Translations under genes and position numbers: made by a program
Notes under the pieces: generated by a model
The model's database searches: none
Seen by the model: only the letters and a program-made list of their open reading frames with translations
Told to the model about the DNA's origin: nothing
Shown: piece after piece, positions 95 through 62,259 of the stretch
Numbering within the stretch: position 1 is the first letter of the stretch
Layout of the letters: every line of letters starts with the position of its first letter
Assembly (NCBI GenBank): GCA_000934665.2
Contig: JYFJ02000741.1
Span: 1-64,000, forward strand
Origin: Catajapyx aquilonaris
Lineage: Eukaryota
Direction of reading: 5' to 3'
DNA length: 64,000 bases

Positions 95-1580
95 TATAAT
101 TCTATTTTTGGTTATTGGTAATTCAAGTGCAAACGTAATTTACCAAAATTAACTTCATAATTGGATTGAATTAATCACTTAATAATCATGCATGCTCCCG
201 TAATTTTTCCACAATATGACACTGTATAATTTATTATTTTCTGGTTAGATACTCATATACAGTACTTAAATATTGTAGGTTCGTAGAGTTTCAAAGTGCT
301 TCAGGTATATTTTAGAAGTAGGATATGTAAATAATATTTTTTCTGATTTGTATTTCGTAACAAGCAGTTATTATAAAGTGCCGGAGACTTTTCTATGAGA
401 TCTATTACGAATCACATAGCTATTTCTCTTTTGCTAACCTTCACAGTCATGACAGCGTCTTTATTGAAATACAAAATAAATTATAAATTTTTTTTGACAT
501 CAGGTAGCTTCTTTACATGTATGCCCTGGTTGGCCAAACATTATTAGTTAATACTGTTGAAGGCAATTCAAAGGTAGCTGCTTACAATAAGCAGATTAGT
601 GGCAACCACTTCGTACATTTTAGTTGGAACACCTTGTTCATGTGAGATCAAATAGATATGGAACGTTTCTTCAAAACAATGAGTTGCCTCGGTTAGCAAA
701 GGGTATATTTTTGACCCAAAAATAATTCAGTGGGTTTTTATCTGACCTGTTCAAAAGTTAAGAAAACTGCTGATAAAATAATATAGCGTAACAAGCGATG
801 AATGCAAAATGGTATACGGGTATGTTCGATTTCGCATTATCTGGTTCGCATTACAGAGTCTGCGTTTTGCATACCAGCAGCGTAAAGTACTTTGTATCTC
901 GTATATCCAGACCTGATCCAGACTAACAAAATCGAAGAAGAAAAAACATCGATACCACAAATCCTTACAAAGGCGTAAAACCCCTCCAGATCAACTTTGC
1001 TCGACTGAACACCGTTTCCGCAACTTGCCCGTTCCAAAAGGTATTTTTGTCCCACCCACACAACCGGTACCGTATGTCCTGAAAATGCAGGTATCCATGT
1101 AGAAACCCCTTATAATTAGGAAGCGTCGCCAGTCAGGTGACAGACCAATTTAGGACCCCCTTCCTTGTTTACGTGGCGAGAAGGTGAGGATAAACCCCTC
1201 ACGAGACTGACTTGTCTCCTGTGACTGCTCGCATCTCATTTCCCACCAGTCTCTTGCTCTTTGCTGCTGCTTCTGCCTCTGGGAAAAGGGTCCTTTTCCT
1301 TGCACTCCCCCCCCCCCCCCCNCCCCAAAATCTGGTGCTCCGCATATCGATTTTCCTTTTCCGACGCCGACGACGCCATCCGACGAATGAGGCTCAGGTA
1401 AGTGCTGTACATAGAGCTGGGGGCATTTACTGATTTACAGTCAGGGTCAATTATGGGGTCGCAGTTGGTCGAAATTATGGCCGGTTGCGGGGGCAAACCA
1501 CTCGCCATTTCTCCCCCCTCAAAATTTATTGTAGTAACTGTTTCGTAATAATCTGATTGTTGTGGAAAGATGTGACTTCC

Positions 1581-2045
1581 ATGTTTGACCCCAGGCCAGT
1601 GACCCGGCTGACCCCGGCCATTATCTTATCGCTGGCATTCCTGTGCTCGGCCGAGTGCGCCGACTGGTGGGAACTTCTGGCTGCACCGACGGTTCCGACA
1701 GATGGCGGGGGCTGTCCTGGCAACCACTCCGACGACGCCATCTTCGCCGCATTTTACGAACACCAAGAGTCCGGTTCTGAGAACCAGAGGTCATTGGACT
1801 GGACTCTTCCAGGTCTCATGTTGTATCTCCTGGAAGCCAAACGACACGTCGACACCATGTCCAGACAAGCTGGAACTGACGACGATGACTTTGAAGACGA
1901 CGATGACGATTCCGATCCAAATCTGTTTTCATACTACGGCTCAGATGTGGAGTATTTGTTCCCGTTAATCTCCTTCAACATCCCATTCGACGGAGAGATA
2001 GTATTCCTGGGCTTCCGGGGATTCCGTGGTCTTATGCGGCGTTGA
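1581..2045 (+). CDS. Putative secreted acidic prepropeptide-like protein (154 aa), family unrecognised
   Basis: ATG 1581 to TGA 2045. Signal-peptide-like N-terminus (RLTPAIILSLAFLCSAECA), internal KR, Asp-rich tract and C-terminal RR. Codons are C/G-ending like the PDE8 exons. Candidate 5'UTR intron 1398-1534 (CAG|GTAAGT...TTGTAG). Confidence 0.6.
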   Translation: MFDPRPVTRLTPAIILSLAFLCSAECADWWELLAAPTVPTDGGGCPGNHSDDAIFAAFYEHQESGSENQRSLDWTLPGLMLYLLEAKRHVDTMSRQAGTDDDDFEDDDDDSDPNLFSYYGSDVEYLFPLISFNIPFDGEIVFLGFRGFRGLMRR

Positions 2046-7673: not shown

Positions 7674-7806
7674 ATGGGGTGCACTCCTAGCATACACGTC
7701 TCCGACACCGGAGTCATCTACTGCAGGGACAATCACGAGAGTCCATCCACATACTCGGCTGCCAATCATCAGGATGCACCCGGCTCACCTGAACAACCCA
7801 AGGAAG
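7674..7806 (+). CDS. PDE8: PDE8 coding exon 1 ([23 protein letters not shown]...PKE)
   Basis: Closely resembles the vertebrate PDE8B N-terminus as I recall it (MGCAPSIHVSQSGVIYCRD). Strong phase-1 donor G|GTGAGT. Confidence 0.9.
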
Positions 7807-10800
7807 GTGAGTACACAGTACTGGGAATATTATCACCTGATCGATTGGCACTATATCGATTGGACCTGGTGTCAAACTTTAGGAAAGATAAACAGCCGGG
7901 AGTTCTCACTAACATATGTGTGTACGAGCCGTGTGTAGTACATGCAGCGAGGATACTGCAAATAAATCCATAGAGACCCGCTGGCGTATGTCGATACTGT
8001 GACATATTTACTATCAGCGGCGGGGAAGTTGACATTGGGCGTGGGAGTTCCGGTCCCGAAGGATCAGTCCTAACTGGACAATGACTCAGACGGACCAGGC
8101 TCATTTTCACGTCGTGCTGGATATATATTAACACTGTACAATAAATCCTGTACACAAGTGTAAAGAACGTTTAAATGGCGCGACCTTTTCACCCAAATTG
8201 TTGATCAACACCGTTTAAAATTAATTGTCGATTCGGTCTCGAGGGCAGTCCTATCCACTGTAACGTGAACAACAAAATGCGCCTGGCATTTACACCCATC
8301 CGTTGGTAATAATTCACGAAGGTCGTTCGTTTATAAGGTCAAGCCCCTCATATTTTCGTTTTCGGTTGATGATGAACCGCTCCCTCCTGCGGGGGAAATT
8401 GATATTAGAAATTGGCAAGGGGGAGGGGGGGGGGCACTGCTCATTTCTGCGTCTGGAAATGAGGTCAGTTTGTGCGAAACCCGAAGCACCGATCGGGTTT
8501 CGGGTTATCGAAGCACTGGGGAAAAACGTGGGAAGGTCGGGGGATATGGTCTGGATTTTAAAAGGCTCCAGAGTTCCTTGTTGATCCTCTTTTCCCAACG
8601 TAAATTTAGAACATGCTTGGGGAAGATATATACTTACACTGGGAGCTGGGGTTTGTTCTTGTTATTTGCAGCTGTCAGAAACCTTCGTATTGACTCTATC
8701 TGGCTCCGAGAGAGGCGGCCCATTGTTGTGAAATTACAGGAGGTTTTGCCGGTTCATTAATGGAATTAAAGTTAACTGAACGAAGGCGGTCGGTCTTGTT
8801 CGGTTAAAGGGGCGAGTAGGTGTACCCTACATATTCAAAAGTGTGTGTCAAATATTCAGCGAGGCTTTTAACCTTTTGTTTTAACCTCGCTCTAAAATTA
8901 TGCCTTGTTAATCACCACTTAACAAGCGTTCAGGCCCCCTTGTCGACAACCTCTTATGGAAAAACCCAGTCAGCCTTAACTCGATTATGAACTTTAGGAT
9001 GCGCCTTTGTGCGGTTTTTTTTTTACTTCCATAGAGTTCTCTGGAGCCTCGTTTTTTTCATCCAAAATGGCGGCAATTGGATCGGAGGCTTGTCATTTTC
9101 CCTAATCAGCCCATCACGTCCCTCCTTGTTGCTAATTAAGCCTCAGAAGCTCCAGACCTAGAAGCCGGGCATCTAATCTTCTCACTTTTGGAGGCGAAGC
9201 AGTAATTGGGCGAAGGAAGAGAAGCCAGGATTCGACCTGACACGGTTGAATTAGCAGCTACATTCAGCAGGTTACAGGCCGCAGCCATCTTGGATCGGAA
9301 AACCTATCGATTGACGATGATTGGAAGGGCGATGCATAAATTACTCTGACGTCAATTATTGTGCGTGCTATCGTGCCTGCGTTTGGCCACTAATGATTTG
9401 ATTAGGGCCAGTTATGTTGAGAAACTAATATTGTCGCCGTTTTTGTTTGGAGGGAGGGTAATGAATGTGTCTTTTTGCTGGGGGGAAAAAAGGTCGCTGG
9501 CTTTTTGCGAATGAGGCACAAACACTCAGCTAATGGAGAATTAGCGCAAAGATATTAAGCAAAGTGATTCGTACAATGTGCCCTGGGCCAATTATTAAAA
9601 CTTCTGTTGTAGACTTGCAAATGGTAATAGATGAGGCGATGTACTGTTTAGATACTTCTTTGTTGCTTTCACTTCCGGAGGGAACAAAAATTTGCCATTA
9701 TAACGTCTCGTTAGCGAGAACAATACTCGAAGTTGGGAGCGAAATAGATGCGACTTGGATAGATGTTATGACTTTGAAAAATCACTTATAAAACAGAGTG
9801 CTTTTTGAGCAACGTGGCCTGTCCTACAAAATGTAGAAATGGCTCTGGAGTTGTTTTTAAGATTATTTTGCTTGGAAGCTATTCTCTTGAGCAGCGAATC
9901 GCCTTGTGTAGTTACCATCCTGCTGTTTTGCGTCACTGCACAAAATTGTTAAAAATGCACCCAGCACTTTCCTTACTCCTTCGCCATTCTTTTACTCTCA
10001 AGTATATTTTATGCATTCAAGGAAGTCGCCCCAAAAAATTATATAGCCAGCAAAGGACGCATCCAGCTGGCGAGCATTTCCAGTTCTCATTCTGGCCGTC
10101 AACGAGACGTCCTATGGGAAAAGAAACAGGTCGCTCCCCGAAATTTATGAAGCTCCTAACGGCTCTGTTAGTATGTTACTCTTACCACTCGCGACTACTC
10201 AGGTAGCAGTCCCCCTAATAAAAATGTGCCGCCTAGAAAAGGACCAAGATGATGATTGAGTATACACTCCGCACGCTCTAAAAGAATTCTGTTTGTTATT
10301 CTAACAGTGTGATGACATTAAGCCTGTTTTCCAGCTGTGATCTTTGGCAACGGCGCGAAATAGATCGATGGTTGAGGTGGACAGAACTGGAAGATCCTTG
10401 GGGATTCAGGCGATGGAGTTGCGGTGGCGGAGGAATTTCAGGGCTGGTGATGAACCATTTTTTTCTGGTATAACTTCATCCCTAGGGATCATGATATATT
10501 CCACCAGCAATCTTCTCAATATAGCATGACATGCATAGACTCCCGTTTCTGAGGGGGGGATACGGTTCAGGATCTTTTCTGAATTTGAGCTAAATCGAGC
10601 TCAAATCCCCCTGTGGTATCAACGCGTGGGATTCAGGGCATTGGAGCTTTACTGGAAAAGCTGTTGGGCTACTGCTTTCTGCATAATCAGGCTTCAGTTT
10701 TGCCTCGAAGATGCTTGCTAAGGATCAGACTCGAGTGTTCATATACGGCCACTCGAGACAGTGGGAAAAAAAACACAGGAAATGAATCAATCTTGGTTGT

Positions 10801-13800
10801 CAACTTAGATATTGTGCTTCCTTTGTGCTCTTAAAAATAGAGCAAAAGGTATCATCCTTCACTGCATGACATCCATCAAATTCGAATTACGTATTTCCAC
10901 CTAAGCAATGAAAAAAATTTCATTATTTTCCTGCGATTTCCGACGTACAGTTCATTTTACAGGATCGTGTTCTTGGTATATCTGCTCTCTGTTATTGAGA
11001 TTCTGCACAATACAGGTCCGCTTCCATTTCATAAACCGGTAATGGATTTTTCCTGTACCATCCTCGTGCGTCATTTTATAAACCTACACGTATATACGCA
11101 CACAAAGGAGCTTTACTGTCCGAAGAATATTTCATTCCGTCAGTCATCGCACGTTGTTAGCGCAAAGCCCTAATTATACCAAAGCGGACAGGGAGTCTCA
11201 TTACCAGCTGAAAAGGGAGAAGACCCTCTCATCCATCCTGGATCGCTGATAAACTGCTTAAAACCAGCTTTTGATTTACGTCAGCCTCATATTTTGAAGC
11301 CGAAATAGGCCATCCTAGAATATAATTCTCCGGCAGGCTGCCATGGCCCAATACGTGTTTTATTTTTGAAATGATGGCATAGAAGGAAAAAAAATCGCTG
11401 CCGTTTTATTGCCGATTCGCGGGCCAGAAAGGAGGCCGTGCACCTGGACCGATGGTGTTTGACCTTTTCCTGCACGCACTTGGCAGTAGCCGGTTTTTCC
11501 AGAAGCACACTTCCTTTCTATTTTTACACCACACGTGGGGTACATGCACTCGCCCACACGTACGCGACTCAAAAATGTGCGGAACAGCGACAACCGGCCA
11601 GTGACACACTCAACCAGTGCCCTTGACACAAGCCCGCTATTTTTATATACCGTTAGCACAATTTTAGATCACCTTCTAACACTGTATACCCAAGAAAATC
11701 GAACCCTTCAAGAGCAACAAGTGACATTGGGCACTTGTTGAATGTGCCTTAAATATTAGAGAGTTGATGTGAAGTGGCCTTATTAGTGCTGCGTACTAGT
11801 TACCACGCTATCCATTATTTTTAAAGCATTATTATTGATGTTGTAATGAATGTGTGCCTGGGACATTGCTTGTTCTGGAAGGAGAAGAATTTGCATTCGT
11901 GGTGTGGAATATGAATTTTTTTCCCCCCTGCAGGAAGCGAAGCTGTCGGGGTGGGGCTGAATGTTGACGCAGCAGTGTTAATGCGATTCCAAATTAGGGC
12001 GGAAATTAATCCTATATGCAGGAGTTGGCCGGAATATTTCCCCCAGATTTTTTACAGAGGAATTTCAAATGTAGAGCAGGTTGCTTGGAATCTCTGAATT
12101 TTGTGCCACAAATAAAATCCAAATAGCCAAAAAGGAGTTAGAATAACATTTTTCCTGCACTATTACGTGGAACTACTTTCATCGTAGTTTATACCATAGG
12201 CCTAGTTCTAACGGTTTGAAATATATGGAAAAAAAATAATGATTTACTATCATTTTTTTTCTTAGATTCTTCCCACGTAGCACATTTGATATTGTGAAAG
12301 GCACAGGATCTTGATTGATTTATTAACAGCCGATGGCGTCAAGTGTAAGGAATTGAGGGCAAGGAAACCAATTAGCGATGGTGAGTGACCTTGCAAATGG
12401 AATTATATTTTTTGCCGTACCAATCGAGTATAATTCCAACCGACGAGCCTGGCAGGCTCGAATTTTCAAAAAGAAAATGCTGGTGTGTGTAAAATCTGCG
12501 GTTAGTTGGCAAGACTTGAGGGTTTATCTCCTGGAGCGTAATGACCACTATACGGAAATGATGGGAAGCTCTCCATTCCGCTATCTGTACTCTCTCGTGG
12601 GGTTTGAACCACTCGAAACCTGGTATGGCTATACCGAGTCATGAAAGAGAATCGTTTGTGTCTGATGGGTAACCCCCAACGGTGTCGTTTTTATGCGGCC
12701 TCATCCAACCATTATGAATGCAAGTGGCGGCAGTGAAAAACCTGTGACGCATTTTTCGAATGGTTGTCAATAAATACACAGTTTGTCAATGATTGAATGG
12801 GGACATTGGAGCAGTGTTCTTTATAATTGAGTTTGTCAATGCTGCACTTTAATCGGGGTGTCAAATTGCTGATTTCAGACAGGAAAATGTTCGTTAACCT
12901 CATTTCCTTTTACATACCTGATAAAGCGTGAAACCGTAGTCGAAATGTGACATTTTGGGATTGGAATACTGTTGAGCTGCCGTTGCACACACAGCACTAT
13001 CGGATATGTGAGCGACACTCGCTGTGGAGGTCATCATTTATGCAGAGCCTGTACTCAAATCATTCGGAAACATCCGCCGGCTCTCTCTTTTTTTATCAGA
13101 GCCAGCCCACAAAATCCTCCACAACTGTTGAATATTGCAGGTAAAGCTGGTGCTGTACAGTGCCCATCTGGTTTAATTACAGTTCCCAATGCCGAAATTG
13201 TAGCCGAATACTTTTGAATGATGAAACTGTTCTTTAAAAATGTGGGACGATGAAAATCCACGTCTGTATAGAAGTAACTGCTACTTCATAATAATCGACA
13301 CTTTCCTGCGACAATGTGTCAGTTCTGAAGCAGGTCGTCAATTTCCAGGGCAGGCATTTCTGGAGGGGGGTCGCCATGTACGCCTCCGGTTACAAGTACA
13401 CTTTATTAGATCCCAGTTCATCATGCAATTTAGGCCAACAAAGGCACTTGTCTTTTGAATGGAGCCCGGTCTGCAGTCAGCGGATGTTGCATGTATAGAA
13501 GGGCGCCCCGGGGTCGTCATGTCCTCTCTCCCTTTGAAAAGCCAATGGCTGTCTTGGGACTACTTGAAGTGAGTACTGGCGCATTTGCCTTTTCCTCGTG
13601 GACAAGAAAATAGCCCGAGCCTGTCACTGACCCCAGGAGTAATTGCCACTTTGGTCTGGAGTGATTTTACACGACCGCGGAGGAATTAGATCCGCTTTTC
13701 TCGTATTCCGAAACCTTGGGTCTGGTTAGTCTTTTGAGGAATTGCATTATTCTCATCAACCTAATACCAGGAAAACAGCATTTAAAGTCAGACAGACTAC

Positions 13801-16800
13801 ATGAAAATTGTCATTCTGCATTTTTTGCGAGCTAGATCATAAAGCAGGATTTTTAAAGAGTAGTCTGCCAAGATAAACGTCCCTCAGTTTATGAAAACAG
13901 AATAATGGCCCTGTAAATGCGGCAAACCAGGCCACGAATAATATTGATACTATTAATCGCATTAATTCCATTGCACACCCAGGTTTTGCACATACCTCTA
14001 ATGACTTGGCATTAACCGCATACGGTCCATTGCACCCGAGTACTTTTAATGCACTATATTATTTTCAAACTGCAGCTGTTATTACGGGGCTTCATATATG
14101 GAATGATTTGTAACATAACAGTGCAGTGGTAAGAGTATTAGTAATCTGGTGCACCTTAAGCTGCTTTTGTCTGCAGAGAGCAACATTTTTTTGCACTGTA
14201 TTATTTAGTCTCCATAATTTAAGTACACAAGTCAGTCCCTTAACCCCGCAGTTCTTATGTCATGTTGTCCTGCCTACTGCTCCTTGTTTACAGCTTCCCA
14301 TCTGCTATAAAAACCTACGACAACATTCCAGTCAGCCGACACACCTCAGCCTTCATCCAAATGCAAGTGACCCCCGCCGTTGCCCATACGTAATAAATCT
14401 GGCCGTGCAGTACCCGGCATCCTCTCCCAAGTCCCAACATCATGAAATTCAAAGTGCTCTAAAGATGACGTCGAACATTATTCAGTCTGTGACGTAATCC
14501 TGACCTCGGTTCTTTAGAAATTTCTGACTGCCGCTGTGGGGTCACACGATACCTGATATTCAGAGTTGTTTTGTCTGGCAACCGCGTTTTGTTTGGTTAC
14601 TTGGCGCGTCACAAGCTGGTTTCAGCCCAGCCCTATAGGGTTTATTCTCCTTATGTAGACTCATTTGCATGCAGACCAGGAGTTGACTTGGCTCATGAAT
14701 TGGCGGGGAGGACCAGAAATGGTGTAACCTCATCCATCTTCCTAATAGGCGTATATAGTGCGCCGGGACCAGTACTTTTTTTCGGATTAGATGATTCAAT
14801 ATTTTGGGGCCGTGTGGGATGGAAAACGGGGGATGAATAAAACGGTTTTCACTTTTGTGCTGCAAATGGATCAGTCGTGTCCTGAATCGATTTGAACAGC
14901 GGACTGCCCACTTGTGGGTTTTAGATTGATACTGTCCAGCGGGATAGTTTAATGAAGCACGAAATTTGAGATGAAGTGGTGGAAAGGGTAAAAAATTGTT
15001 TCCATTATGAACACACTTCCACGAGGAAAATGTGTAGCTTTACAGTGTTAAGTCTTCGAATACATGATTGAGACACACTTTTACATAATGGAGTTAAATA
15101 TTACGTATGCGCAGACGATCAGATGAGGAGGTCAAGACCTGCGCATAACATTTGCACAAATAACTCCGTCTCTTCTGTTATCCAATCCTTTTGAGTCCGC
15201 TTCTGAGCATTATTTTACAGACGGATAAAACCGTGTTAAGAGCATGGCCACAGCTCTCGCAAAAGCCAAATCAGTTGTCAGCATTGGCTTGTGTCCAGAA
15301 AAAGTGTTGGCTCCCGACCTATGAATGAGAAGGATGCACACACTACTTAAGTGTAATAGATAACTTGCTCTGACGATAAGGCTTAAACGCGGCACCTAAT
15401 AGAAACGTCTGGCTTTGAAGGTTCCGACTACAAGAGCCAATAAAATTCACCTGAACACAACACTCGCGTAACATCTTGTTTCGATGAAATAATAATAAAA
15501 AATCGCAGCAGGCGTCTACTGGAACAATAGTGTGACCTCGAGACTATTTATTATACAGCGTATGTATATTTTCTTCATACATCTGTCATTCACAGCATGT
15601 AGCATACTTCCAATACTGCGCGTCGTATTTTGCGCACCGCTTTTTTATATATATTTGTTATGACCAGACGAATAATTCTTAAAGGTCACGTTTAGTGTGC
15701 GTAGTTCTTCCCAGAGGAGGTGTGGACAGTTTGGTTAATGGATGACGGTCGTGGATTGGCCGGTCGAAGGACATGCTCCCGATGCATATATTAAGCCGGC
15801 AGCGCCGTCATGAATATTGCAATTGTTCGAGTGTACTTGTGCATAGTGTACCGAGAGGTGTCTGTATACGGACAGTGCGCGTGTATGTAGCCGGAGACAT
15901 GGTGGACGTTACAGGTGGGTTCAGTGCACGAAACATTGACTAAACAATGGATTTGTGATTAATACGGAAGCAAAACAGCGTCAAAAATAACATGATGTGA
16001 TACATGTCCTCTGGAATGGACGTATCTAATGGCCTTGACGTAACAGTTGGTGCATTCATTGCGAAAATTACGTGTCAAACCGTAGCATCGAGGCATGAAA
16101 CTCGAGGAATTGATTATGTCTTCCAAAGACGTTAGCACCTTAATTCAACCGTGGAACCCCAAAAAAGAGGACAGGCAGTTCGATTGGCTTGTGGTCTCTT
16201 CCTGTTTGGTGTGTAAATCCCTAAGGACTTGGCCTTTTCTTCAGACTGACACGAAATTCGATTTTCCGGAGGTCTTGTCAGTGCGCGGCGGAGTTTGTAT
16301 TGGTCCAGGTCCTGTGTCTTGATTTCCTGAACCGGGTGTTATAAAAACATCTTAAGGCCTTTTCCTTCCAACACTCACAGTGAGTACAGTACAGCATTTC
16401 AAAGGGCTTGGATTTAGAGTAGGTCATGCAAAAGCTGCGATTTGGCATAGATATGTTATTCACACTAAAGTGTGGAAATCGCGACTGGTGGAAAAAAGAA
16501 GCTGTTGCCTCGAGGATATGGATTTAATTAGAAGTTGGAGGCCGTAATTAATATAGGCCTACGGGATATATCCGGTTGAAGGCAGATTAATCCTAAATGA
16601 TCGTACCTTTTTTGCAAGGCTGCAATTTTGGTGAGAAAGTCTTAGTCTCTTTTTTTGGCTCTTTTAGTTGGGACCTGAGACACTCTTGGCCCAGTTCGTG
16701 ACTAACAAGCTACAGCACCTCTTCCATTTTAAGCTGCCTCGTTATGCATGCTCAGAAGCTTACATGGAATAAGGAACTAATCCAATTCATGTCAAATAGA

Positions 16801-19800
16801 TTTTGGAAGTGAAGAGGCGTGATTGTCGAGTTTTTAATTTCAAGGGAGCTTTGTCGAGGTGATTATAGTGGTGTAATTTTTTGGCCGATTGTGTTGTAAG
16901 CTTGTAAGTACTAAACTTACGACATGAGCCAGTGTTTATGACTCGTTATGGATTGCATGCTTTGGGAAGTCATGCGACGCAACTCAGTTTTGTCGAATGT
17001 CTACTGCGCAGCATGGTGTATACAGTTTCCGAGCCAATGATATGCCAGAAAATATGATATGCACTGTAGTATACGATCAATGTACTCCTTAAACTATATG
17101 CGAATATATTCCACGTGTTTATATTTTAAAGTCTGATATCAAGAGGCATTTCGGCCCCCCTAATTGCATGTTGTTATAAACTCGCAGTTGCTGACAGAAC
17201 TGTTTGGCACCGAAATCATGATGTTCTGTCGAAATAATTGTTGTAGACTTTACAAACATCAGCTTAATTTTTACGGTTACTGTATACATGATGCAAACAT
17301 ATTTTTTGGTATAATTTAGCTATAAATGTAGTGTACACTTGCGAGACTGGAATGCGTGTTTTTATAGAGAGCCAAATTGAAGTACTATACCCATGCAATG
17401 CCATTTTTCAATGATTCATTCATTGAGGAGCCAATATGCACTGTAATACCTATCTCAAAGCTAACATTGCAGGAAAAGGCAAACATACTGTAAGATGTTT
17501 ACTGATGTATTCTTTATCACAGGGAAGTTGATGTTGACTGAGAATTGCACAGTAGGCTTAAAGATTGTACTGTACACTATATGTTAACATGCCAGTAGAC
17601 AGTACTGCGGTTCCAAGCCGAGTTTAGTTAAATTAATTGTCCGATATGTATGATTAAATGTTACATTCCTGTCTTATGGCGTAGAGATTTTTTTGTAAAG
17701 TCCTATTAGATTATGTTATCTGTATGTCACGGATAACAAGTGAGTGTTAGCGCCTTCCGTTACATTTTTCGAGTGTATATAATATTTTTCGCAGCTAAAT
17801 AATCACTAAAATTATTCTGACAGCGGAAAGTGCCACACATATGATAACAACTCCAGTGCTCTAGATATGACACCTTTTTGCATGATTATGTCACGGATTG
17901 ATTGATTGATTACTTTTTATGGCGCAATATCAGCACTAGCTGTAATGCGTCAAAAACAAAGTTATGCTGTGCCAGCTATGTTATGAGCTTACATTATCAT
18001 CGATGAGCGAAAGGTTAACATTGATGCAATGAGAGGAGGTAAATAAAATAAAATAAGTGGATATTTATAAAATGAAACATATGTAGAACAAAGTTTCTAG
18101 TGATTATGCCACTGATCACGTCAAACGTGACGTATAAAATGATACGGGAAGATAAATTTAATCCCCTACTTGAATTGCTCTACCCTGACTTTTGCAATAA
18201 AAATTGCACAGTCTTCTTGCCGTAACTCATAAAACCTCAGCCAAACTTCTCCACCTTGCCAAAACCCGAAATGCAAATACTGCATGCATGGCCAAAACTT
18301 TCTCCAGGCTCTTTACAGCAAAGTAAGGCTATATACACTGCTTGAAATTTGCCAAAATCCTGCTTGCTGGCCCCATAAATATGTAATAAGTGCCCTCGAA
18401 AACCGATGTCTTTTCCCCGAGCAAATATCTTATGTATTCATAGCATTAATCTCATCCATATTTTGCATTTCAGGAGCCGGGTCGTCCAGGCAAGAACCCT
18501 TGGCTCCTCAACAACTTCTGGGAAAAGGAACCTCTCGACTGCTTCCTCCAGTGAGATTTTCTGTCACTCTTCTTATTTTTGGATGCATCTTCCGGGTACA
18601 TGCGCATACTAGATCTGACGAAAATATAGAGCATGTTTCTAGCCTTGTTAGGAGTCTTACCTCTCGAGACTTCGTTAGCGCTTTTCTCTGTTGTCCAATC
18701 GTAGAACCGGAGAAGTTGCACCAGGAATAGCTCCCAGATTGGCAATTCCGCGGTCCCGACGTGAACCTTGACTAATGGTGCAGTTAACCTGTTCTTAAAG
18801 GTTTTTGGTCTAAATTTAAACGCAGCCTGGCCTGGGATTAGTCTTGGTTTTTGGAGACGCCTCGATTCATATGGCTTTAATGACAAGTGTTTAGAACTTG
18901 CCTAGCTAATTACATCCCTTGTGCTGCAGGCAACTCACTCCTAATGGTGTCTCGCATTTCATATCTGTAGTTGCTGTGAAATTATCGGTATTTTTTGGGA
19001 CTCTCAACATTTGCATATATAAAGGGTACTAAATTCTTATCTGGTGCGCTGATGGCAAGGGAAATAAAATGCAGAGTTTGTATACCGCCTCGACAAAATG
19101 TAAGCTGCCAGCCGTGGCTTTTCAGACAATCCTTATTGATGTCCGATATTGATGGGGCTGGAGAAGATTCAGGCCCGTTTCTGCTCTCATTTTGTGTGCT
19201 TAAAATGTTCGTAGCTTTAAGAGGAGGCTGTCAGAAACTTTCTGAGCGGTTCTCTCCATGATGAAAGGTAATCAAAGAAGGGCTTTTCCTTTGCCATCGA
19301 AGGTGTTCAAACACTGTGCTTTGTTTCAGCAGCCGACAGCGGAAGTGCGATTTGGTTCCATGCGTCTATCAAGACCACCTCTTAAGGTAAATTAGCATTA
19401 AAGACCCCTTCCCTTTTTATGCAACCCAGTCTATAGTTTGAACTGTGTGTAACCGCAATATTGACCTCCACTGAGAACACCCTTTGCTGCGGGTTGATGA
19501 CAGTTGGGTACAGTAAACGTCATTTTGGCAGTACCCATACCTGTGAAATAAGGGAAGACCTGTTGCTTGGCAACTATACGTTCCTTTTATAGGCTGCAGA
19601 GTTCTGTATTGACCGACGAAGAAAACTTTCTGGCCGTGATTGTATTTCAAGCCTGCTAGGAATAACAAACCATATTTTCATATGATATGCGGATGGCAGA
19701 AGTTGGAATTGGAGGGAGAAACTAAAACCGGAAGAGAGGGGGGGGGGAAGCATGCTATTTTCCAGGATGAATAATAGATAGTCTGATCCACTTTTATTGT

Positions 19801-22800
19801 TCATTGGGCAGATATAGCACAGGAAGTGCAGGCCTTCCAGGCTTTTAGCGTAATGAGGTGTACCTTACGGTTGGAGGACACTGAACAGTGTTTTGTTAGG
19901 TCCTGGGGAAATTTGCAGTTAGGTTTTTTAAACACTGTTGCGATCAAAAAGCACCGAAATGTTTGAGCAAGTTTACTGTAACGTAAATTAAACCAAACAA
20001 TAACATTGTACCACTGTTATAAGCTTATTTATAAGCTCCCACTGTACGGATTAGTGCCATGGACTTGATTTCGTGATTTTAGCATGGTTTTGTGCATGTC
20101 AATATAGAGCTAGGATTACAGGATACTTCATGTAAGCACATAAGCAGGTCAGAGCCACAATAGGAGGAACTCGCTTCATGCACGGAGTTTTAATAAAAAT
20201 ACAAATAACTGAAAACCATACTCAGTCGTTAGGCTACATTATTGGCATTTTCAGATTACTGTAGAGCAGTTGGTACTAGTACAGCCTGTGTTTACCCTCA
20301 AGCCGTGCATTCATGTGCGATGCTGTGAAATGATGCGTGACTTTAAATCGCACACGTTTAAACTCTTTACTGTGATGTCATCAAGGCTTCCCATCTGTTA
20401 TTTAATATGCCATATGTATAGAAGCCAATTCCCGGATGTCATGGTCTGTTACGCTTTGTTTACTAAAGCAACTGCAAAGCGAGTGCCACAGAAGCCCGCT
20501 AATAGCAGGTTACATTAATGCATTAATGACAGTTGCATTTGCGTCTGTGTATTATGCAACTCCAGCACACGTGAAAAAGGCCACCGAGGTAATGCCTCGT
20601 GTTTCGGTCGAGCTATAAAATAACAGATAACACTTGCCATTTAGTGTGACGATAGAAAGTCAACTTACAATGATGCGCCGTAGTTACTTTATTATACGAA
20701 TCCTCAAAACAAAAATGTGTAATATTATACACGTTGTTATAAAAATTGAATCACCTATATCAACTAACAATATTATTTCAAGTCATATCACGTGCGAAAC
20801 TGGAAACTAATGCTAGACGCGAAATACTGCTGAAACTCGCACACTGTCATAAATGCATAGCATCGCAGCCTGTAGGCTATTTCTAGACCTCCTGCTGCTA
20901 TCTCCGAGCTTTCAATAATGACGGGGGCCGCCCTTGGTCTGAGTTGATATCCACTCCAGTTAATAGCCTGCTCTGTCCCTTATCAAACTCTAACACTTTC
21001 CAATATTCTGCCCCCGACCTTCATTCATATTGAAAAACATGTTCACAGATACTCCTCGTGTTCGCCAAAGATGATGCTCAAAGCGAAGCTTTCCTGTCGG
21101 CAGCAGACAAGCTCCGATACGAATGCACCCAAGTCCGCAGCTCCGAATGCGCCCTAGAATCCTTCCAGGACAAACATCAGGATGTAATCCTCATAGACTG
21201 CAGACATTCCAAACACTTTGACGGGGAAGCCCTCTGCAGGTATATATACACAGTCAGAAGTAAGGTAGCAGACCAGAAGTTGAAATTAGCCTCCAATCTT
21301 TTTTATGGGAGGCTATATAACTTCAGCTTCAGGTCTGTTACTTGTCCAAATCCAAACTCTTAGTATTTTCCCTGTGTGTAACCGGATATTTCTGCAGGTC
21401 CATCAGGAACCTCAAGATGAGCCAACTCACCGTGATAGTAGCCGTGGTGAAAAAGAGGTGAGGCGGATGACCTCCCGGACCTTTTCCGATAATTTAAATC
21501 CTCGTCCTCTTTTGTGTACCCACAGCTTTGCAGAAAGAGAAGACGCGCCCATATTACCTCTCCTGAACGCTGGATTCGACAGGGTAAATATGAGCAAGAT
21601 TAGTTAGATGCTCTCTCCGGCACTCTCCAATGGCTTGATCCTAAGCGTATATCTCCGACATCCGGCGCTCTCTTCACGCTGAGGCCAGTGTCGCATGATT
21701 GGGCACGGGATCTAATTTTCAATCACGGGAAGGGTGATTGGAAGGGAACTTGTGTGCTGCAGTTGTAATGAACGGAACAGACAGCTGCGGCTGAAAGCGA
21801 TTGATGGTATAGGATTGTGCTGCTCAATGTCTTTCCAGATATTTTAAAACCCCAAAAACTTTCTTAGCATCTACATGGCGACATAATATATTACATGTAC
21901 CTTAAAAATATCGAGCTGTAATGCATTTTTAATTCCGTGCAGTCTGGCTGGGCTTAAGAGTTGACGAGGAATATATGGTTCTGGGCTTTCTGGGATCCAA
22001 TTATTTTTACCATCAAAGTCGGTCTGAAGGCCCCCGTGGCAAGACCTCTCCAAACCTCAATCAATTCGTAAAACCCGGCTGAATAAATAAAACGGAGCTC
22101 CCCGGAACAACGGTTGAGGAACATTAGTTCCATTTCGTCGCATGGCTTTCCGGATGAAGGGTAACGGGGCCTGAGCAGGAGAGATAAGCAGAGATGAGCA
22201 CACAATCGGAATCGAAGGATGAGGTACATCCCATGATGATGGGAGGGACAAAAAAGAAGAAGATTACACGGAAGGTCGTCAACCTGACAAATGCTTATAT
22301 AGTAACGGAGCAAACAGTATGTTCCAAGACACAACGCGTGCCAAAATTTTTGTTGCTTCTTATATCAGGCGGATATGAGGTTATGTCCGTAGGAAAGCAA
22401 TTTCCTGGAAGCATTATTACAGAAAGTATGGGATGGCAAATTGGCCGAGAGAGATGTCAAGAGAAAAGCTGTTTTTGGGGCTGAGGCCTGGAGGGCGCTT
22501 TAGCGGCGAACCCTCGTCGCCCTCGCAAATTGCATTTTGCGACCTAAAAGCAAACCGAGATGTATTTTAGTTGACACTTATTCCTCCCTCTCAGATGGAA
22601 CAATGGGTTTTTTGGTTCCTTCTGATGATTATATCTGTCTGATTCCTTCCTCCGGACAGTGCTTTGTGGAGACCGGAAACGCCAGCGTTTGTGTGAACGA
22701 ACTTCTGCAGCTGGAGCAGGGAGAAGTGCAGCTTAGATTTAAGTTAGAGGCAGCCAGTTCGCTATTCACAGCTCTAGACAACTGTCGAGATTTGGTCCAA

Positions 22801-25800
22801 ATCACCGACAGCTCACATAACATACAGGTGAGTCTCTGGTTGTTACGTTCTTATCTCTCTCTGGTCCACACTATTAAAACACTATAATGTAAAGGGTACA
22901 TGGCATGTGATGCACCATCACCTTTTGAATTGTTTTGATTTAAGATTGATTTTTAATTACATTTCAGTACGTAAATCGGTCTTGGGAGAAGCTACTTGGC
23001 TACTCTAGAGACGAAGTGATAGGCAAGAACGTCCAGGAGCTTCACCATATGAAGACAGAAGGCCTGGATACAGTAGTCCAGCAGCTGAACAAAGGCAAAG
23101 AGTGGGAAGGCATCTTCACCTGTCGGCGTCGACCCGGAGACCTTTTGCCACTTTTCTGCTGGATCGTTCCATCATTCACCACAACCAGGTTGGAAAACCC
23201 CCCCAATTTTTTCCCTCTATGTCTCTAGCTTGTCTAGATAGAAGAAAAAAAGGTGGTGGAAGGAGGGAGCTTTTAGAGAAGCTGAAACCACTTTCATTTC
23301 CTACAAAGCTCCAGCTCGAGTCGCGGGATCGCAAATCAATTCGTGTACATCAAAGAGCCGCCGCCTTTTGTGGTGGAGAAATCAACGTTGGCTGAAATGG
23401 GACAGAACGACCTGTATCCTTTGCCTCGAGGAAGTCTCCGGTCGCTAAGGAAACCGTCCTACGACATCAAGTCATTAAGCAGCGATGGTAAATCAAATTA
23501 CTTTGCTTTTTTTTGTTCACATCCTAATAAAATGAAACAGCAGAATTTATTATTCGGACTTGCAAAACTGTAATTATTTTAAGCATATTTTAATTAGTAC
23601 AGTCGTGAGTCATATAATTATCACAGAGTGCTATTGGCTGCTGTGAGGAATTCCGGCCTGCCATTGGCTTCGGTGCGTAATCCCAGCCTGCCATTGGCTG
23701 CTGTGAGGACCACAGCTATAATATGCAAGTCCGAAAGCCGCTTGTCCAACTCTTGGCGTTGAAAATACGGATAGTTATACCCCTAGGTTCGTTTTCGATC
23801 ATCCGGAGACAAAGCCTGGCCAAGATCCACTCGCTGACCATCGAGGCTCCGATCACCAAAGTGATCAACATAATATCAGCGGCCCAGGAGAACTCGCCCA
23901 TATACGTAGCCCAGGCCCTGGACAAAGTAAGACAATTTGGCGCTCACTTTTTCAGAATTTTGCGAAAGGACCGATCAGGTGGAGTTGTCATTGGCAGGTG
24001 TTGGAAATACTCCGGACGACAGAGCTCTACTCTCCGCAGTTATTCGAAGGCAAGGGCAAGTCTGAGGACCCCATGACCACAGACCTTCTTGGAGCCTTGC
24101 TCTCGGTGCGGAAAACACATTCTTCGACTAAATGTGCTCAAAGTGATGTATAATATTTTATTTATTTTTTTAAACAGCAAGGGCCTAAGCCGATCACCAC
24201 CAACAGGCGGAGCTCGAACGAGAACGCGATAAAGTCCCACCAGCCTGTGGCCCGTCCTTCCCTGCCAAACATCAACAATGCACCTATCCAGATCAGACAA
24301 TTGTTGGAGAGCGAGGCCAGCTGGGACTTTGACATCATGCAGCTGGAGGAGCTCACCGGAAAGAGGTCTCTCATCTGTTTACATCCTTTAAGAGCCAAGG
24401 GGGCAATTATATTGCCCCGTAATGAATTAGCCCAGTGTTTTCCTCCAACGTTGCGTTTATTGCTTCAGGCTCTGCTTGTAATTTAAAATGAAAAGGGTGC
24501 CCATTACACATTATTGCGCCCCAGAACACTTTTGTTGCTAATTAAAATTGACGGTGTCCGCGACACATGAGGGTGCGATACGGTAGCTTCCAAGATGGCG
24601 GCGCCCATTGAAACCGAGCACGTTTGCAGCTCCAGCAAAAATGTCCCGTTTTCTGGTAATTTTGATGGTAAATCGAGGTTTAAATGTGTCTAGAAGACAC
24701 AGAGAGGCTAGGTTCGTACATGTGGGCACAGTTTGATATGAACATCTACTTGCATGTAAAGCCCTGCTTAGACATTATTACATGGATATGCTGTTGTACT
24801 GACATTATGTGCATATTTTAGGACTTTGGTGTGGTTGGGGATGGCTACGATGGTGCGGTGTGGGGTCCCACGGGTGCTGGGATGCGACGAGACAACGCTG
24901 CAGAACTGGCTGACGTTGATCGAGGCCAACTACCACTCGTCCAACACTTACCACAACTCGACGCATGCGGCGGATGTGATGCAGGCCACGGCGTACTTCC
25001 TGGAAAAGGAGAGGCTCAAGCAAATATTGGATCCACTGGACGAGGCCTGCTGTCTCATCGCTGCTGCCGTGCACGACGTGGATCATCCGGGGAAGACCAG
25101 CGCATTCCTGGTGAATTCTGGGAACGAGCTGGCCATCCTCTACAATGACCTTAGTGTGTTGGAGTCGCATCACTCGGCCCTAAGCTTCAAGCTGACCTCC
25201 TCCGATGAGCGAGTCAACATTTTCAAAGGTGTGGCCATCTTCTTAGATCACGCAAGGCACAATTGCAAAGTACAGATTGCTAAATTGGGATCACCTGCAA
25301 GTACCACACAGCTCGTTTGCTGCACATTTGCATCGCAGAGTCTGCAGACCACGAGGTTGATTAATAGCCAGTATTTCTTGCTTCCGCAGGGTTGGATCGT
25401 GAGACACACAAGGTGGTTCGGCAAAGTATTGTGGACATGGTGCTGGCCACTGAGATGACCAAGCATTTTGAGCACTTGTCCAAGTTTGTGAATATTTGCA
25501 CCAAGACGGCACTGAGGGAAGAGGATGAAGGGGCAGGAGAAGTGAGCCACTTTGCATCGTTGAAGGTGGTGGAGGGTGCAACTAACATTCCCCATTTCCC
25601 AGGCCTTTGATCTGCTAAATCAAATTGGGTCTAGTTTTAGTATTAGTCTAGTATTAGTAAGGTTTTTAATGATAGCAAGTTATTTTGCGTATGTTTAGAA
25701 AGTTTTACTTTTTTGTTCGTTGGGTGACGTCATTAAAGTATGTGGCCCAATTTGATTTTGTAAGTTAAGGGTATCCTTGGTGTGCTTATATTTTAGAAGC

Positions 25801-28800
25801 AATTTAAAAATTTACCTGCAATGTAGTGGTGATGGATTGAATGAAATTTTGCAACTTTTCATAGTTGCATAGTGATGCACAGTGATGAAGCCAGTCACTG
25901 GTTTAAATATTTGGAGTAACAGTTAACAAGAGAAAACTTTCTGAAAAAGTTCACTCACCACTTCATTATGGGCAAATTTTTCTATTCCCTCTTCTACTTA
26001 CAATGGAGCTGTCCATCAGACCTAAAAGGAAAAGGCATCTTATACCTGAGAATTTCTTAAAGCATTTCTGGATTTTCTCAGGAGCACTCAGAACTCATTT
26101 GCAACTTTGCGAAATTAAACATGGAAATTTCAAAAGTTTGAAATTACAGTCTACTTGGCTTATATTAACTTGCTGCTTTTTTGTACTCCATTATAACTAT
26201 GACAAGTGCTTGGAACGGAACTGAATTCCCTGTGCTTTTCAGCTTTCCTAATTGTTTCTTGTATTTTGTTAACGCTTAGTGGAGTGCTGTCTAATGATTG
26301 TAAATGCATGTTGTCATATTACAATAACAGTGTCCCAAGTTGTTTTTTAAAGTCTGGTCCTTGTCCGTAAAAGATATGTGTTTATAACGTGATGGAGCAA
26401 AGTCATTGCTCTTGTGAAAGTGAATTGGCACTAAGGCTCATTACCACATTTTAATGAGTGCCTGTGGGACACTTGTATCCAGCTGTGATACGTAACAGCT
26501 TGGTTCTTTGAACATCACAGTATGGCACAACTGTATTCAGTCTCAAAACTTCATAACTTTGTAAATTAGAGGGCCAATGTTCTGTCCATTTTTATGAATC
26601 TAATTTTTTTCCTTCCATAGAGCACCAAGGACATGGTGGATGTAACACTTTTGGCAACTCCTGAAAACATCGTGCTTGTGAAACGCATGCTGATCAAGTG
26701 TGCCGATGTATCCAACCCAACCAGGCCTCTGGAGCTGTGCACAGAGTGGGCACATCGCATTGCAGAAGAGTACTGCTCTCAAGTAATTTTAGTGAAATTT
26801 TCAGAGATTTCACAATCTAACTGACCGCCTCTTGCAGACGGACGAGGAGAAGACAAAAGGGCTTCCGATAGTGATGCCAATGTTTGACAAGGCCACTTAC
26901 TCCATTGCTAAGTCGCAGATTGGTTTCGTTGACTACTTCATCAGTGATATGTTTGACGCTTGGGATGGTAAGAATGAAATGATCAAATGTTTATATTGCA
27001 GATTTGGGGCCTTTTTGTTACAACTTGTAACAATTATGGTGGTTTTGAATAGTTACCTGATAGGGGAGAGTCATTGAGTGAAAGTAAATTGATTCAAGTT
27101 CCCACAAAGAAATCATTATTAATGTTATTTCAGACCATGGGTTATGCCACTACTTGGAACACATTGTATAAGTGCATTGTTCAATACCAATGGAATTTCC
27201 CTGAGATTTAGGAAAAAATATATTCGTATGCAGGGCAACCAATATTAAGTGAAATAACTTCTTATTGGAAAATAACATTCTTCCGAAGCAAATTTATATT
27301 TAGCTACATGCTCTGGGTTTTTTTCTGGATGTATTGCATGTGGCTGCCTCCTTTTACATGGTAGGTGTACCAACGCTACGCAATCTCAAACCATACACTC
27401 TGTGGAGGATCTCATTCCATGCTTTATCCTGCATAAATGACTTCCACTTTCCCTAATATGCAACATTTCAATTATATTCATTTTTATTTCGTTGTTGCCT
27501 CACCGTAAGCAAATAATAAAGATGTTTTACGGGTAGCAGTACATACAGTGGTAGCATTTTAAAATGTTTACGTGTACTTTTTCGTTGAATTTTTTGGCCT
27601 AGCGCTACGGTACTGTTCACTACATATCTCAGGTTTTTGTTGAAATGTCCTATCAAGGGGATGGTGTCTACTCAGGGGAATCAGTAACGCTTGCGAGGCT
27701 GGAACATGGAACTAAATACTACAGCAGAGTGGCCCACACAACCTGACAGATGCGGAACAATGTTACATTTTATTGAATTGATGTCAGGTTTTTCTTTATG
27801 CAAAGTTGTGGAATTAGAAAATCCAGCATGCTGAGGTACCTGTCAGGGAGGGTTCAGATTTTAAAAAATAAGACATGAAACGATATGTTTGACAGGAAAT
27901 TTGGTACAGTTGGCATAACTCCTGAATGAGATGTGCTGGCCACATGCAACACCTTCACATAAAAACCTGGAGTATGTACAGTGCTGGACATTAATTCCGT
28001 TGTGTGGCTAGCGACATTTCCCGATGCGGCAGAAATGCCAATGGAAGTGATAGAGTGTGAGCCGTGCATGTAAGAAGTAGGGCTTGGGTGACTCAGTGAC
28101 TGGGAACAAGCTCCATTGCCCCCCAGCCATTGACGTTATCCAAGGCCTGCCATTTCTTACTCGCATGGGTCGCACTCTTATCACTTCGACTTGCACTTCT
28201 GCCGCATCGGAAAATGTCACTAGCAGTATGACGGAATTAATGTGTAGCACTGAACTGTACATAGCTGTAATAATTGTTTCAGGTGAACGTCAGTTTCTAA
28301 TCAAATGTTATTTCATTTCGTAATTGGATACTAATTTTTGCAGAAACCACAGCTTGGGATCACTGAAATAATCATACTAATCCAAAACTATCCTACAAGG
28401 TTGGAAGCCAATAGTTCACTATTGTCTGAACTAACTGTGTATTATGTCACACCATATTATCCTGGTTCTTACTTTTTAAAAACCTGTGGCATAAATGAGT
28501 TATGTAGAAAAAAAAATGCATGTGCAATGTTGGAAGTGAAAACTCGAAGCCATTGGCATCACACATTGAAGAATGACAAACTAGGATTAATGGACCATAT
28601 GTGTCGGGTGCACTTGGGATCAGTAGTACCAACATGATGTGGGAATATCAGTGGCATTTCAACTTTCACTGACTTATACAACACATAGTATATTTCAGTT
28701 GACAAGATGTCAATGGGTTCCTGTTGTACTGGATATGTTAGAATTCAGAATAATACTGTCTAATCTCTTCCATCTACTGCTGCTTGACCACTCCAGTACT

Positions 28801-30871: not shown

Positions 30872-30943
<72 letters not shown>
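30872..30943. repeat. (ATT)24 microsatellite in the probable PDE8 3'UTR
   Basis: 72 nt of perfect ATT units. Confidence 0.97.
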
Positions 30944-33900: not shown

Positions 33901-35295
33901 CCTGTGAACTTCAAAGGGACAAAAAATGTTTGCTATCCCTGCAATACAATTTTGCCTCATAAAAACATAATTACATTTATTAGCGCTTTAAAAGTGATGC
34001 TTACTTGCCATATCCCTGCGTGGCCGACTGTCACAGACCCTCCATTAATTAATAATTATGAGCGCATATTTTATTTTATTTTTAATGGTCTAAATGAAAT
34101 TACTGGACTATATACAGAGTGGCGGTAAGGTCATCATAGGCTAGAATTAAGGTGTGTTACAACTGTAGGTCTGTCTTCATCATAATTACCGCCGACTATG
34201 TTTCACACTGTTGGCGTAAATAATTAGCCGTTTTTTCGTATAACTCCACATTGTTAAACACATACGCTCAACAAATGTCAAATCCTGTATATTACTCCAT
34301 ATCGACAAAAAAAAATCACACACTGTTAAAACGTGTGGTTTTACCACCTGACGGGAGGGCTGTCATGTGCTGCAAGCAGTTGTTTAATTGCGTCATGGCA
34401 TGCGCGCTAATTCCTCAATATTAGTGTCAATTATTTTAAAATTGCACGACCGCTTCCGGAATGTGTTTGATGAGAATTCGCTTGTTCAGGTGCACTCATA
34501 GTCCAATCAGGTCCTGATGCATTCGTACATAACTATTTTAGAAGAATTCTAAGTAATTAAAATATTTTACTAGTAGCTAACGGCTGATATTTTTCCACGG
34601 TCAATATTTCACGGTTGGACGTTAACTAGAACGAAATGTAAAATGTGGCGCCCCCTTGGTTAATGAAGGTAATTAATTGTTTGCACCGGGCATGCCTAAT
34701 GGAGACTAATTACATTCATGGGTGTTCGGATTAAATAAAAAGAGGTTCCACTGCTTGACTTAATATCCCAACCCAGCTTTCCTCCTTGCAACCTTATTTC
34801 CTCAGCCTCCCTCCCTCCTCATCCTACCACATTTCCGTCTAATTATCCCAACTTGCTTCAAGTAAGAAGGTTCCCGGAAAGCCCGAAGTTCGTTCCCTCC
34901 TAACCCATGATGCTGGAGAAACAGCACAGTTGCCTTGATTTATTGTTGGGCGAGATGGGTCTCCCGCAATGCCTCCGGACCCTGGACCTGTGTTTTTGTC
35001 TATAGGGTTTCTCTGCACGAATATTATTGGGAGAAGCGGAGGTTTCCGGAGGCGGTAGGCTCTTCTCTCTCTGGCGTCATGTCCGGTGGCAGTGGCAAAT
35101 CAAATGGGCTGTCTCTGCTGTTTAGCCGCATTCGCTCGAAAGATGTCCCCGCCGGACCAGATGCCAACCCTCACGATGTTTCAAGTCAACATGTGGTCTC
35201 AAAACCGGAGGATTGGTTTTCTCTATACTGTATACAGTACAGTACGATAATGGTTAGCAAATATTTGGCACGAATCTGCTTGTTATTAAGCAGTA

Positions 35296-36045
35296 CAGTG
35301 AAACCTGTCTATGTTGGACAAGGATGGTTCCAAGGAAAATGTCCAACATACTATAGGATTTCATTATCTCGGATTTCACAATGCAGTACAGTAATCAATT
35401 TCCAAGCATGTTTTCTTATTTTCAGTATACATGAGAGCACAGTGTACATGCAATTTCTGAAACTGGCCTACTTTTTGTTTCATAAATCGCTAACAAGTGC
35501 TTTAAATAAGAAAAATGTTAATTTCCTTTCGGGCAGCAAAAATGTTGTCAATAAGAGTGGCATGCCAAAGCATAAAGTTCTAATTTTTAACGCACTAAAG
35601 GGCATACCGAGGAGAGGGTTTTTTTATCGTAATGACTAGGTTTTACAACATCTTCATCTTCTGATGATTTACTTGTGTATCCTGCAACACCTGCTTCAGC
35701 ATCTCCTCTGCATTGCGACCATATTCATCCTCCGTTGTCAGGATGTTGTCATGCAGTTGACAAAATAATGACAATGTCACTTGAACCCATGAAGGCATGT
35801 TTTACAAAAATGTACTGTATGTAGAGCTCAGTATGGCTCAAGTTTTTATTTGGAGGGGAAACGAGAATACATGTAGATTAAATGTGAAAATTGTGCTTCA
35901 CTTGTCCTACTTAATAGGGAAAAAAGTGTCCAACTTCCGAGTTAGACAGGTGTCCAACTTAGCAACATTGCAAGGGATAGGCGTTTTGACTGTTCCAAAA
36001 GTAATGTCCAACATAGGGAGGTATCCAACTTGACAGGTTTCACTG
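35296..36045. mobile_element. pogo/Tigger-like non-autonomous DNA transposon (MITE), 750 bp
   Basis: 14-bp perfect TIR CAGTGAAACCTGTC / GACAGGTTTCACTG, extending imperfectly through GTTGGA. TA on the left, TT on the right. Subterminal TGTCCAAC repeats. Confidence 0.85.
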
Positions 36046-62192: not shown

Positions 62193-62259
62193 ATGTGTGG
62201 ACGCCGATGTGAGGTCAGCTGCCTGCTGCTCCTTGCCATGGCACTCGCGATGCCAAAAG
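62193..62259 (+). CDS. Probable signal-peptide first coding exon of a downstream gene (MCGRRCEVSCLLLLAMALAMPK)
   Basis: GCCAAGATG start context, basic n-region and hydrophobic h-region, phase-1 donor AAG|GTAAAA. GC-rich sequence lies upstream (61.6-62.2 kb). Confidence 0.55.

Follow-up and report, generated by a model that had tools for sequence, protein, structure and literature searches.

Is the open reading frame at 1581..2045 on the forward strand, upstream of PDE8, a gene, and what would its product do? The question was addressed within the 64,000-nucleotide stretch of DNA that was analyzed as a whole (the window). Translation of 1581-2045 (+) confirmed the uninterrupted frame described by the initial annotation (P0001, 154 amino acids followed by TGA), and the hydrophobic signal-like N-terminus, NHS sequon, KR, acidic run and terminal RR listed with it are all present in P0001. 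The length of the frame by itself is no significant departure from chance, as ATG-initiated frames of at least 154 amino acids arose at a mean of 0.73 per simulated 64-kb window (30 simulations, same composition). Elsewhere in the window, a 186-amino acid ATG frame at 35079-35639 (+) ranked outside the top 15 of 68 frames by codon usage and is probably a chance frame.

Composition and comparison gave a clearer signal. The base pattern of P0001 is coding-like (GC1/2/3 of 0.58/0.43/0.63), and its synonymous codon usage, scored against the PDE8 exons of the same window, ranked second among the 68 stop-to-stop frames of at least 100 amino acids, with only a PDE8 training exon ahead. The 38 codons of a conserved C-terminal module were then compared with five homologous loci, the comparison being restricted to loci in which the module is unbroken. 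Identity was 63–79% at codon position 1, 82–87% at position 2 and 21–29% at position 3, with a pN/pS of 0.21–0.24 between P0001 and the five loci (family-wide range 0.03–0.24). This codon-position pattern indicates selection acting on the protein, purifying in its C-terminal module. P0001 is almost certainly a real protein-coding gene, and the suggestion that annotation had overlooked one here is borne out by the homologs described below, the codon-position pattern and the codon usage. A tblastn search found no paralog of P0001 elsewhere in the 64-kb window.

The start of the gene was initially drawn with a TATAAT at 1111 and a 5′UTR intron at 1398-1534. The letters are as reported: the TATA-like hexamer at 1111..1116 (+), which is a possible but weak core promoter given the 59 copies of TATAAT on the two strands of the window, the GT at 1398 and the AG at 1533-1534. 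The donor of that intron stood up well, with CAG/GTAAGT at 1397 ranking fourth of 3840 GT sites and being the sole AGGTAAGT on the + strand, but its acceptor did not. On a matrix built from 14 PDE8 acceptors, for which left-out true acceptors score 1.0–9.5, the acceptor at 1534 reached a mediocre 2.9 (76th percentile), as against 6.0 (93rd percentile) for the acceptor at 1594, which outscores the other 11 AG sites from 1400 to 1720. Splicing from 1397 to 1535 would also create a 10-amino acid upstream frame and leave two upstream ATGs (1387 and 1570) before the weak-context ATG at 1581. Alone among the 12 AG sites, acceptor 1594 links the ATG at 1387 in frame to P0001, yielding a protein of 153 amino acids. 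The intron end thus more likely lies at 1594, so that the upstream exon becomes coding rather than 5′UTR. On acceptor score and reading frame, the model we prefer, with reasonable confidence, replaces 1398-1534 with a 197-nucleotide intron at 1398..1594 (+) and has a likely first coding exon at 1387..1397 (+), comprising the first ATG after the TATA-like site and 11 coding bases, followed by the strong donor. Exon 2 would then begin at 1595, three codons from exon 1 would take the place of the first four codons of the 154-amino acid frame, and the start of the signal peptide would be shorter and more basic. An ATG followed directly by TGA at 1570-1575 (+) would be a start-stop upstream frame in the 1534 model and is intronic in the 1594 model.

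The predicted precursor can be divided into successive segments. Residues 1-24 (1581..1652, +) resemble a signal peptide by hydropathy and by an AlphaFold helix at 12-25. The Kyte–Doolittle 9-residue maximum of this core is 2.97, from residue 14, similar on this heuristic to the maxima of 2.82–3.38 in the complete homologs P0009, P0020 and P0021. By the (−3,−1) rule, which is used to place signal-peptide cleavage sites, a cut after Ala24 is probable. The pro-region (residues 25-86; 1653..1838, +) carries the NHS sequon (residue 48; 1722-1730) and leads to Lys-Arg at residues 87-88 (1839..1844, +), a candidate convertase site that is without the P4 Arg found in the RxKR/RxRR sites of P0009, P0020 and P0021. 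An Arg-Gln motif at 95-96, found as RQ in 10 of 24 family proteins, precedes an acidic and, by composition, probably disordered spacer (residues 99-112; 1875..1916, +). The aromatic and glycine-rich module that is the hallmark of the family follows at residues 115-152 (1923..2036, +), as delimited by homolog alignment, and the frame closes with Arg-Arg (153-154) and the stop codon (2037..2045, +).

The reading of P0001 as a probable secreted proprotein gained support from the three homologs with complete N-termini (P0009, P0020 and P0021), each of which pairs a signal-like core with two furin-type RxKR/RxRR sites, and secretion of the product is highly likely. The features on which weight had been placed fared less well. 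No homolog aligns significantly across the NHS region, the 45 residues before the module range across the family from 4 to 33% Asp/Glu and from 18 to 65% Ser/Thr/Pro and are equally free in length, and the C-termini differ, ending in K or R in 14 of 24 proteins and in Tyr in the other ten (FPY, FPYK and FPYRR among the endings). The conserved part is residues 115-152, which had gone unmentioned.

The module was defined by homology searches. HMMER with P0001 against 1.84 billion representatives returned 18 proteins at E ≤ 0.001 (best 2.7e-12), the matches being nearly all confined to residues ~105-152. A second search, made with the matching stretch of P0003, recovered 15 of 16 candidates, and a word-indexed search with P0001 scored none of 21. 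All 19 invariant columns in an alignment of 19 sequences lie in residues 116-150, and the P0001 module is 55–74% identical to 23 homolog entries over 38 columns. IPFDGEI and GFxGF[KR]G are invariant in the modules of all 24 family proteins, P0001 included, and every one of the 24 also has FDGEIxxxGFxGF and, near the end, FxGx[KR]G. Throughout the 24, the module spans 40–43 amino acids with 9–15 aromatic residues, 5–9 Gly, no Cys and a net charge of −3 to 0. No conserved cleavage site bounds it in these proteins: the nearest Lys or Arg upstream of the invariant PFDGEI is 21–34 residues off, with none within 20 residues in any of the 24 and none within 35 in four (P0001, P0002, P0004 and P0006). 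A Gly-basic amidation signal is missing in 23 of the 24, and no significant internal repeat was detected in the module (p 0.59–0.84).

Organism names are attached to four of the 18 matches, each an uncharacterized springtail protein (Folsomia, Orchesella and Allacma); the other 14 are assembly products, some labeled 'hypothetical'. The named springtail homologs are LOC110845742 and LOC110845759 of Folsomia candida (XP_021947925.1 and XP_021947949.1), CAL8088260.1 of Orchesella dallaii, and CAG7826272.1 and CAG7729700.1 of Allacma fusca. Among the proteins of these three genera, 31–34 of the 38 module residues are conserved. The family has several members per species, and a tree of the module (44 columns) is mostly without resolution, one of its 17 inner branches being starred. 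A metagenome scan yielded six homologous loci from 388 pattern matches, whereas none of 116 pattern matches in prokaryote genomes and none of 78 in viral contigs was a relative. No named insect or crustacean protein appeared among the matches; because the large search was made with a single sequence and no profile, the status of these groups is 'not detected' rather than 'absent'. At L006 3536-4912, two introns divide the 40-amino acid module of a family member among three exons; the N-terminal domain described below lies upstream, and the preceding gene has a ribosomal protein S17 domain at its end. Intron-split members such as this one would escape bacterial-style gene callers.

Structure prediction was less informative for the module than for the N-terminal part of the springtail proteins. 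Two low-confidence AlphaFold models have pLDDT of 53.5 and 60.7, and in both the module is without secondary structure at pLDDT 50–58, which may reflect shallow alignments (19–25 rows) rather than disorder. The N-terminal domain of the springtail forms is predicted, with moderate confidence, to be helical (block means of pLDDT 74–83 at residues 31-50 and 101-120). An HMM of that domain scored 0.4 bits against P0001, a value reached by 141 of 2000 shuffles, so that the likeness is suggestive at most; a post hoc local match between P0001 and P0019 gave p 0.004 on trimmed segments only and 0.155 untrimmed. Residues 35-125 of P0009, with counterparts in P0019, P0020, P0021, L004 and L006, make up a second undescribed conserved springtail domain, in which a furin site and YLYP separate two helices, both of which carry Trp and terminate close to a Cys. 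After cleavage it would possibly form two disulfide-held chains; it gave no Pfam match and no fold match.

The neighboring gene provides an anchor for comparing gene order. PDE8 occupies 7674..30575 (+) in 17 exons encoding 835 amino acids, with AG at all acceptors, GT at all donors, one terminal stop and homology to PDE8. Its best matches are a top record at 82%, Daphnia at 78–79% and decapods, with springtails at 74–76%. In a tree of 27 of 61 PDE8 rows, in which no dipluran, proturan or remipede is named and springtails are entomobryomorph rows only, the window sequence groups with pancrustaceans (support 99/98) but belongs to none of the clades formed by springtails (100/100, three entomobryomorph rows), insects (100/100), malacostracans and water fleas. 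This placement argues against a springtail as host, within the springtails sampled; a dipluran-like hexapod is the most likely one. The window PDE8 has a short branch of 0.24, as against 0.65 for the springtail stem.

In O. dallaii, the homolog CAL8088260.1 and the PDE8 protein CAL8088263.1 are three accession numbers apart and are both listed on a contig of 2,790,724 bases. A congener has about 20,000 genes (PMC4987106), and the chance of falling within three accessions of PDE8 is ~3 in 10,000 per family member. The position of the homolog near PDE8 in O. dallaii is an apparent case of conserved synteny, with adjacency and orientation inferred from accession numbers. P0001 and P0008 share Arg-Gln-(Ala)-Gly-Thr before the acidic spacer and the Arg in GF[KR]G, but the 44-column module tree does not join them, which speaks against orthology to CAL8088260. 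So does the Folsomia arrangement, in which the named copies are carried by a contig of 28.5 Mb and PDE8 by another of 6.5 Mb. Comparison of PDE8 proteins with the six metagenome loci gave no match, and five of the six loci are shorter than 2 kb.

By its module, P0001 belongs to a family of secreted proproteins that is undescribed and has to date appeared only in springtails and in the present, wingless-hexapod-like genome. Rather than the narrow lineage-specific orphan that had been proposed, the family is common to two springtail orders and apparently sits in the same place beside PDE8; judged from these sequences, it probably predates the split of springtails from the lineage of the window. 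Its homologs were already in databases as uncharacterized proteins, and the general precursor layout was already known. A literature search at topic level found no description of a family like springtail LOC110845742, and a full-text search, with subscription journals and the precursor files of PMC4770511 outside its scope, found no paper with the family accessions or the two motifs.

Searches for known domains and folds named no family. Pfam had no match for P0001, only low-complexity matches for 19 A1 members and a sub-threshold RecR_C hit for the isolated module. Sequence searches of the PDB gave best E values of 0.65 and 0.89. Fold searches with the low-confidence models gave a best Foldseek E of 8 and a best VIA Z of 5.3, with the module barely covered. 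The Atlas gave no usable match for P0001; for P0009 it offered leads at 0.76–0.78 (clusters, two of them mostly arthropod) with TM below 0.3. A neuropeptide, venom or antimicrobial identity, as first suggested, is not supported by the family features, namely no amidation signal, no Cys in the module, a charge of −3 to 0 and no conserved bounding cleavage site.

As a tentative first choice, we propose that P0001 supplies a self-associating extracellular module of the cuticle type. The signal peptide would be removed on secretion, and a convertase would cut at the basic site or sites, after which trailing Lys or Arg may be trimmed. The product would consist of a disordered, polar spacer and, attached to it, a neutral to acidic module with a high content of Phe, Tyr, Gly and Pro. 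Having no confident fold alone, the module would associate outside the cell with its own copies or a matrix partner; candidate sites of action are the cuticle or epicuticle, the eggshell or a glandular secretion. The pro-region and spacer would keep the module soluble until processing. This structural role is ranked first because the module has no conserved cleavage site at its borders, the sites present are of furin type, the spacers are often mucin-like and the make-up of the module suits self-association. Furin RxKR/RxRR sites are typical of constitutively secreted matrix proteins. Glycine-rich structural proteins are noted in the cuticle of Orchesella cincta in a review passage that names none of them (PMC9861782). 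Counting against a structural role are the missing cuticular Pfam match, the non-significant internal repeat and the 31–34 of 38 conserved residues, a degree of conservation that would exceed the need of many structural low-complexity domains and fit a receptor ligand equally well.

That conservation bears on a possible, if doubtful, alternative, in which P0001 is a peptide hormone or neuropeptide precursor. The module, or part of it, would then bind a receptor in a signaling system that wingless hexapods retain and that insects have lost or greatly altered. Single-copy peptide hormones have a signal peptide, a variable pro-region and one conserved C-terminal peptide, and P0001 shares this layout, its one C-terminal peptide being highly conserved. 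Basic residues end 14 of the 24 family proteins, and the motifs FDGEIxxxGFxGF and FxGx[KR]G, present in all 24, resemble orcokinin A and tachykinin-related peptides (TRPs) as printed in PMC5831470 and PMC4696782, respectively. Shuffling gave p values of 0.002–0.029 for the orcokinin A likeness and 0.007–0.057 for the TRP likeness, but both fail multiple-testing correction, as the motifs were chosen after inspection from more than 30 families; 30-plus neuropeptide families are listed for basal hexapods in PMC4770511. The same paper reports ordinary orcokinin and TKRP precursors in basal hexapods, which also argues against a hormone. So do the absence of DEIDR from all 24 proteins, the absence of a basic site behind the tachykinin-like Gly, and hence of an amide, and the lack of a conserved cleavage site ahead of the module. 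A more specific version, in which the module would be the ligand of an undescribed peptide-signaling system that arose in the common ancestor of springtails and the non-springtail lineage of the window, has kept its place next to PDE8 ever since, disappeared from insects and maybe shares a distant origin with orcokinin or tachykinin, is rather unlikely.

A secreted binding protein is unlikely as well. Here the module would fold on a specific extracellular or membrane partner (an enzyme, a transporter, a lipid or chitin) and act as an inhibitor, carrier or adaptor. A near-invariant hydrophobic module with no predicted fold of its own would suit such a function, as would the helical N-terminal domain kept by the springtail forms, with its two Cys flanking a furin site. 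Against this, that domain is not significantly detectable in P0001, no partner candidate emerged, no PDB sequence match fell below E 0.65 and no fold match exceeded Z 5.3.

The acidic spacer of P0001, followed by a hydrophobic tail with four Arg, recalls the acidic propiece of antimicrobial or venom peptide precursors, an identity that we regard as very improbable: the module has a charge of 0 in P0001 and −3 to 0 family-wide, it contains no Cys, the spacer is non-acidic in many members, and strong purifying selection, not rapid divergence, acts on the module (pN/pS 0.03–0.24). The motifs were not found in those parts of the supplements that were available for a Collembola AMP survey (PMC10051947) and a remipede venom study (PMC5577568). 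Least probable by far is that no secreted stand-alone gene exists, the frame being a chance ORF or pseudogene, or 1387-1397 a distant first exon of PDE8: frames this long do arise 0.73 times per simulated window, and the 1387 exon (phase 2) is formally in frame with PDE8 exons 5, 6, 9 and 13, but P0001 has 18 homologs, saturated third and conserved first and second codon positions, PDE8-like codon usage, an unbroken frame and, in O. dallaii, apparent synteny with PDE8. The 1387 exon does not join PDE8 exons 2-4 in frame, and its use by PDE8 is unlikely because PDE8 has its own first exon at 7674.

The preferred structural role, if correct, would make P0001 a specific candidate for one of the glycine-rich proteins, as yet without names, at the body surface of soil hexapods; a hormone would represent a signaling system lost by insects. 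As Folsomia candida is a laboratory species, the choice between the two is directly testable. Peptide surveys of basal hexapods sought families known from insects and crustaceans and would therefore pass over one that exists only in wingless hexapods. The present one combines a short, strongly constrained module, several copies in springtails and apparent PDE8 synteny across a deep split, and annotation gains a revised gene model together with a new domain that can be defined. Two further features of the window were recorded. At 62193-62259 (+), an ATG and 22 signal-peptide-like codons with a basic start and a Leu/Ala core are followed by a phase-1 GT donor, which is probably the first exon of another secreted-protein gene running off the window. 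Two perfect (ATT)n microsatellites of ~72 bases lie at 2566-2637, downstream of the P0001 stop, and at 30872-30943, downstream of the PDE8 stop.

Among known systems, orcokinins come close in motif. Against wasp orcokinin A, FD-EI plus three residues and GFxGF gives 8 identities in 13 positions with one gap. Orcokinin precursors carry multiple copies of their peptides flanked by basic cleavage sites, unlike the module, which is a single copy inside 40 amino acids with no flanking basic sites. Orcokinin A is an NFDEIDR-type peptide (PMC5831470), the core of the group being of the NFDEIDR or NIDEIDR type; several isoforms per species are given there and in PMC4696782, and most orcokinins listed in the latter are also non-amidated. 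An orcokinin or pedal peptide identity fails on the missing DEIDR, the single copy and the lack of flanking basic sites. Among tachykinin-like peptides, the FxGxRamide type is matched by FxGxRG in seven of 24 proteins (P0001 and six others, with a shuffle chance of 0.9% in P0001) and by FxGxKG in 17, and the FxGLMamide type by FxGLM in P0001 only, the other 23 proteins being without it. A tachykinin identity is likewise not supported, since the module Gly, which has 4–7 residues after it, is followed by hydrophobic residues rather than a basic site in all 24 proteins, so that no amide can form, and since the motif is present in a single copy.

The CPF/CPFL, vitelline membrane, chorion, Tweedle and Osiris families are small cuticle or eggshell proteins with one conserved hydrophobic motif. 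They share with the P0001 family a signal peptide, a low-complexity linker, basic sites and a short Gly/aromatic-rich motif, but neither P0001, the 19 A1 members nor the isolated module matched a cuticle or eggshell Pfam family, and no cuticular family (chitin-binding, CPF, chorion, vitelline or other) appeared at E up to 1 or 10. The springtail homologs differ from P0001 in length (231–264 amino acids in three complete forms, as against 153–154), in the helical two-Cys N-terminal domain of the complete forms, to which the match of P0001 is not significant, and in having RxKR sites and a Phe-Pro-Tyr end where P0001 has KR and Met-Arg-Arg. They have the same module, in which P0001 shares 21–26 of 38 residues, together with a polar spacer before it and, in the complete forms, a signal-like N-terminus and basic sites.
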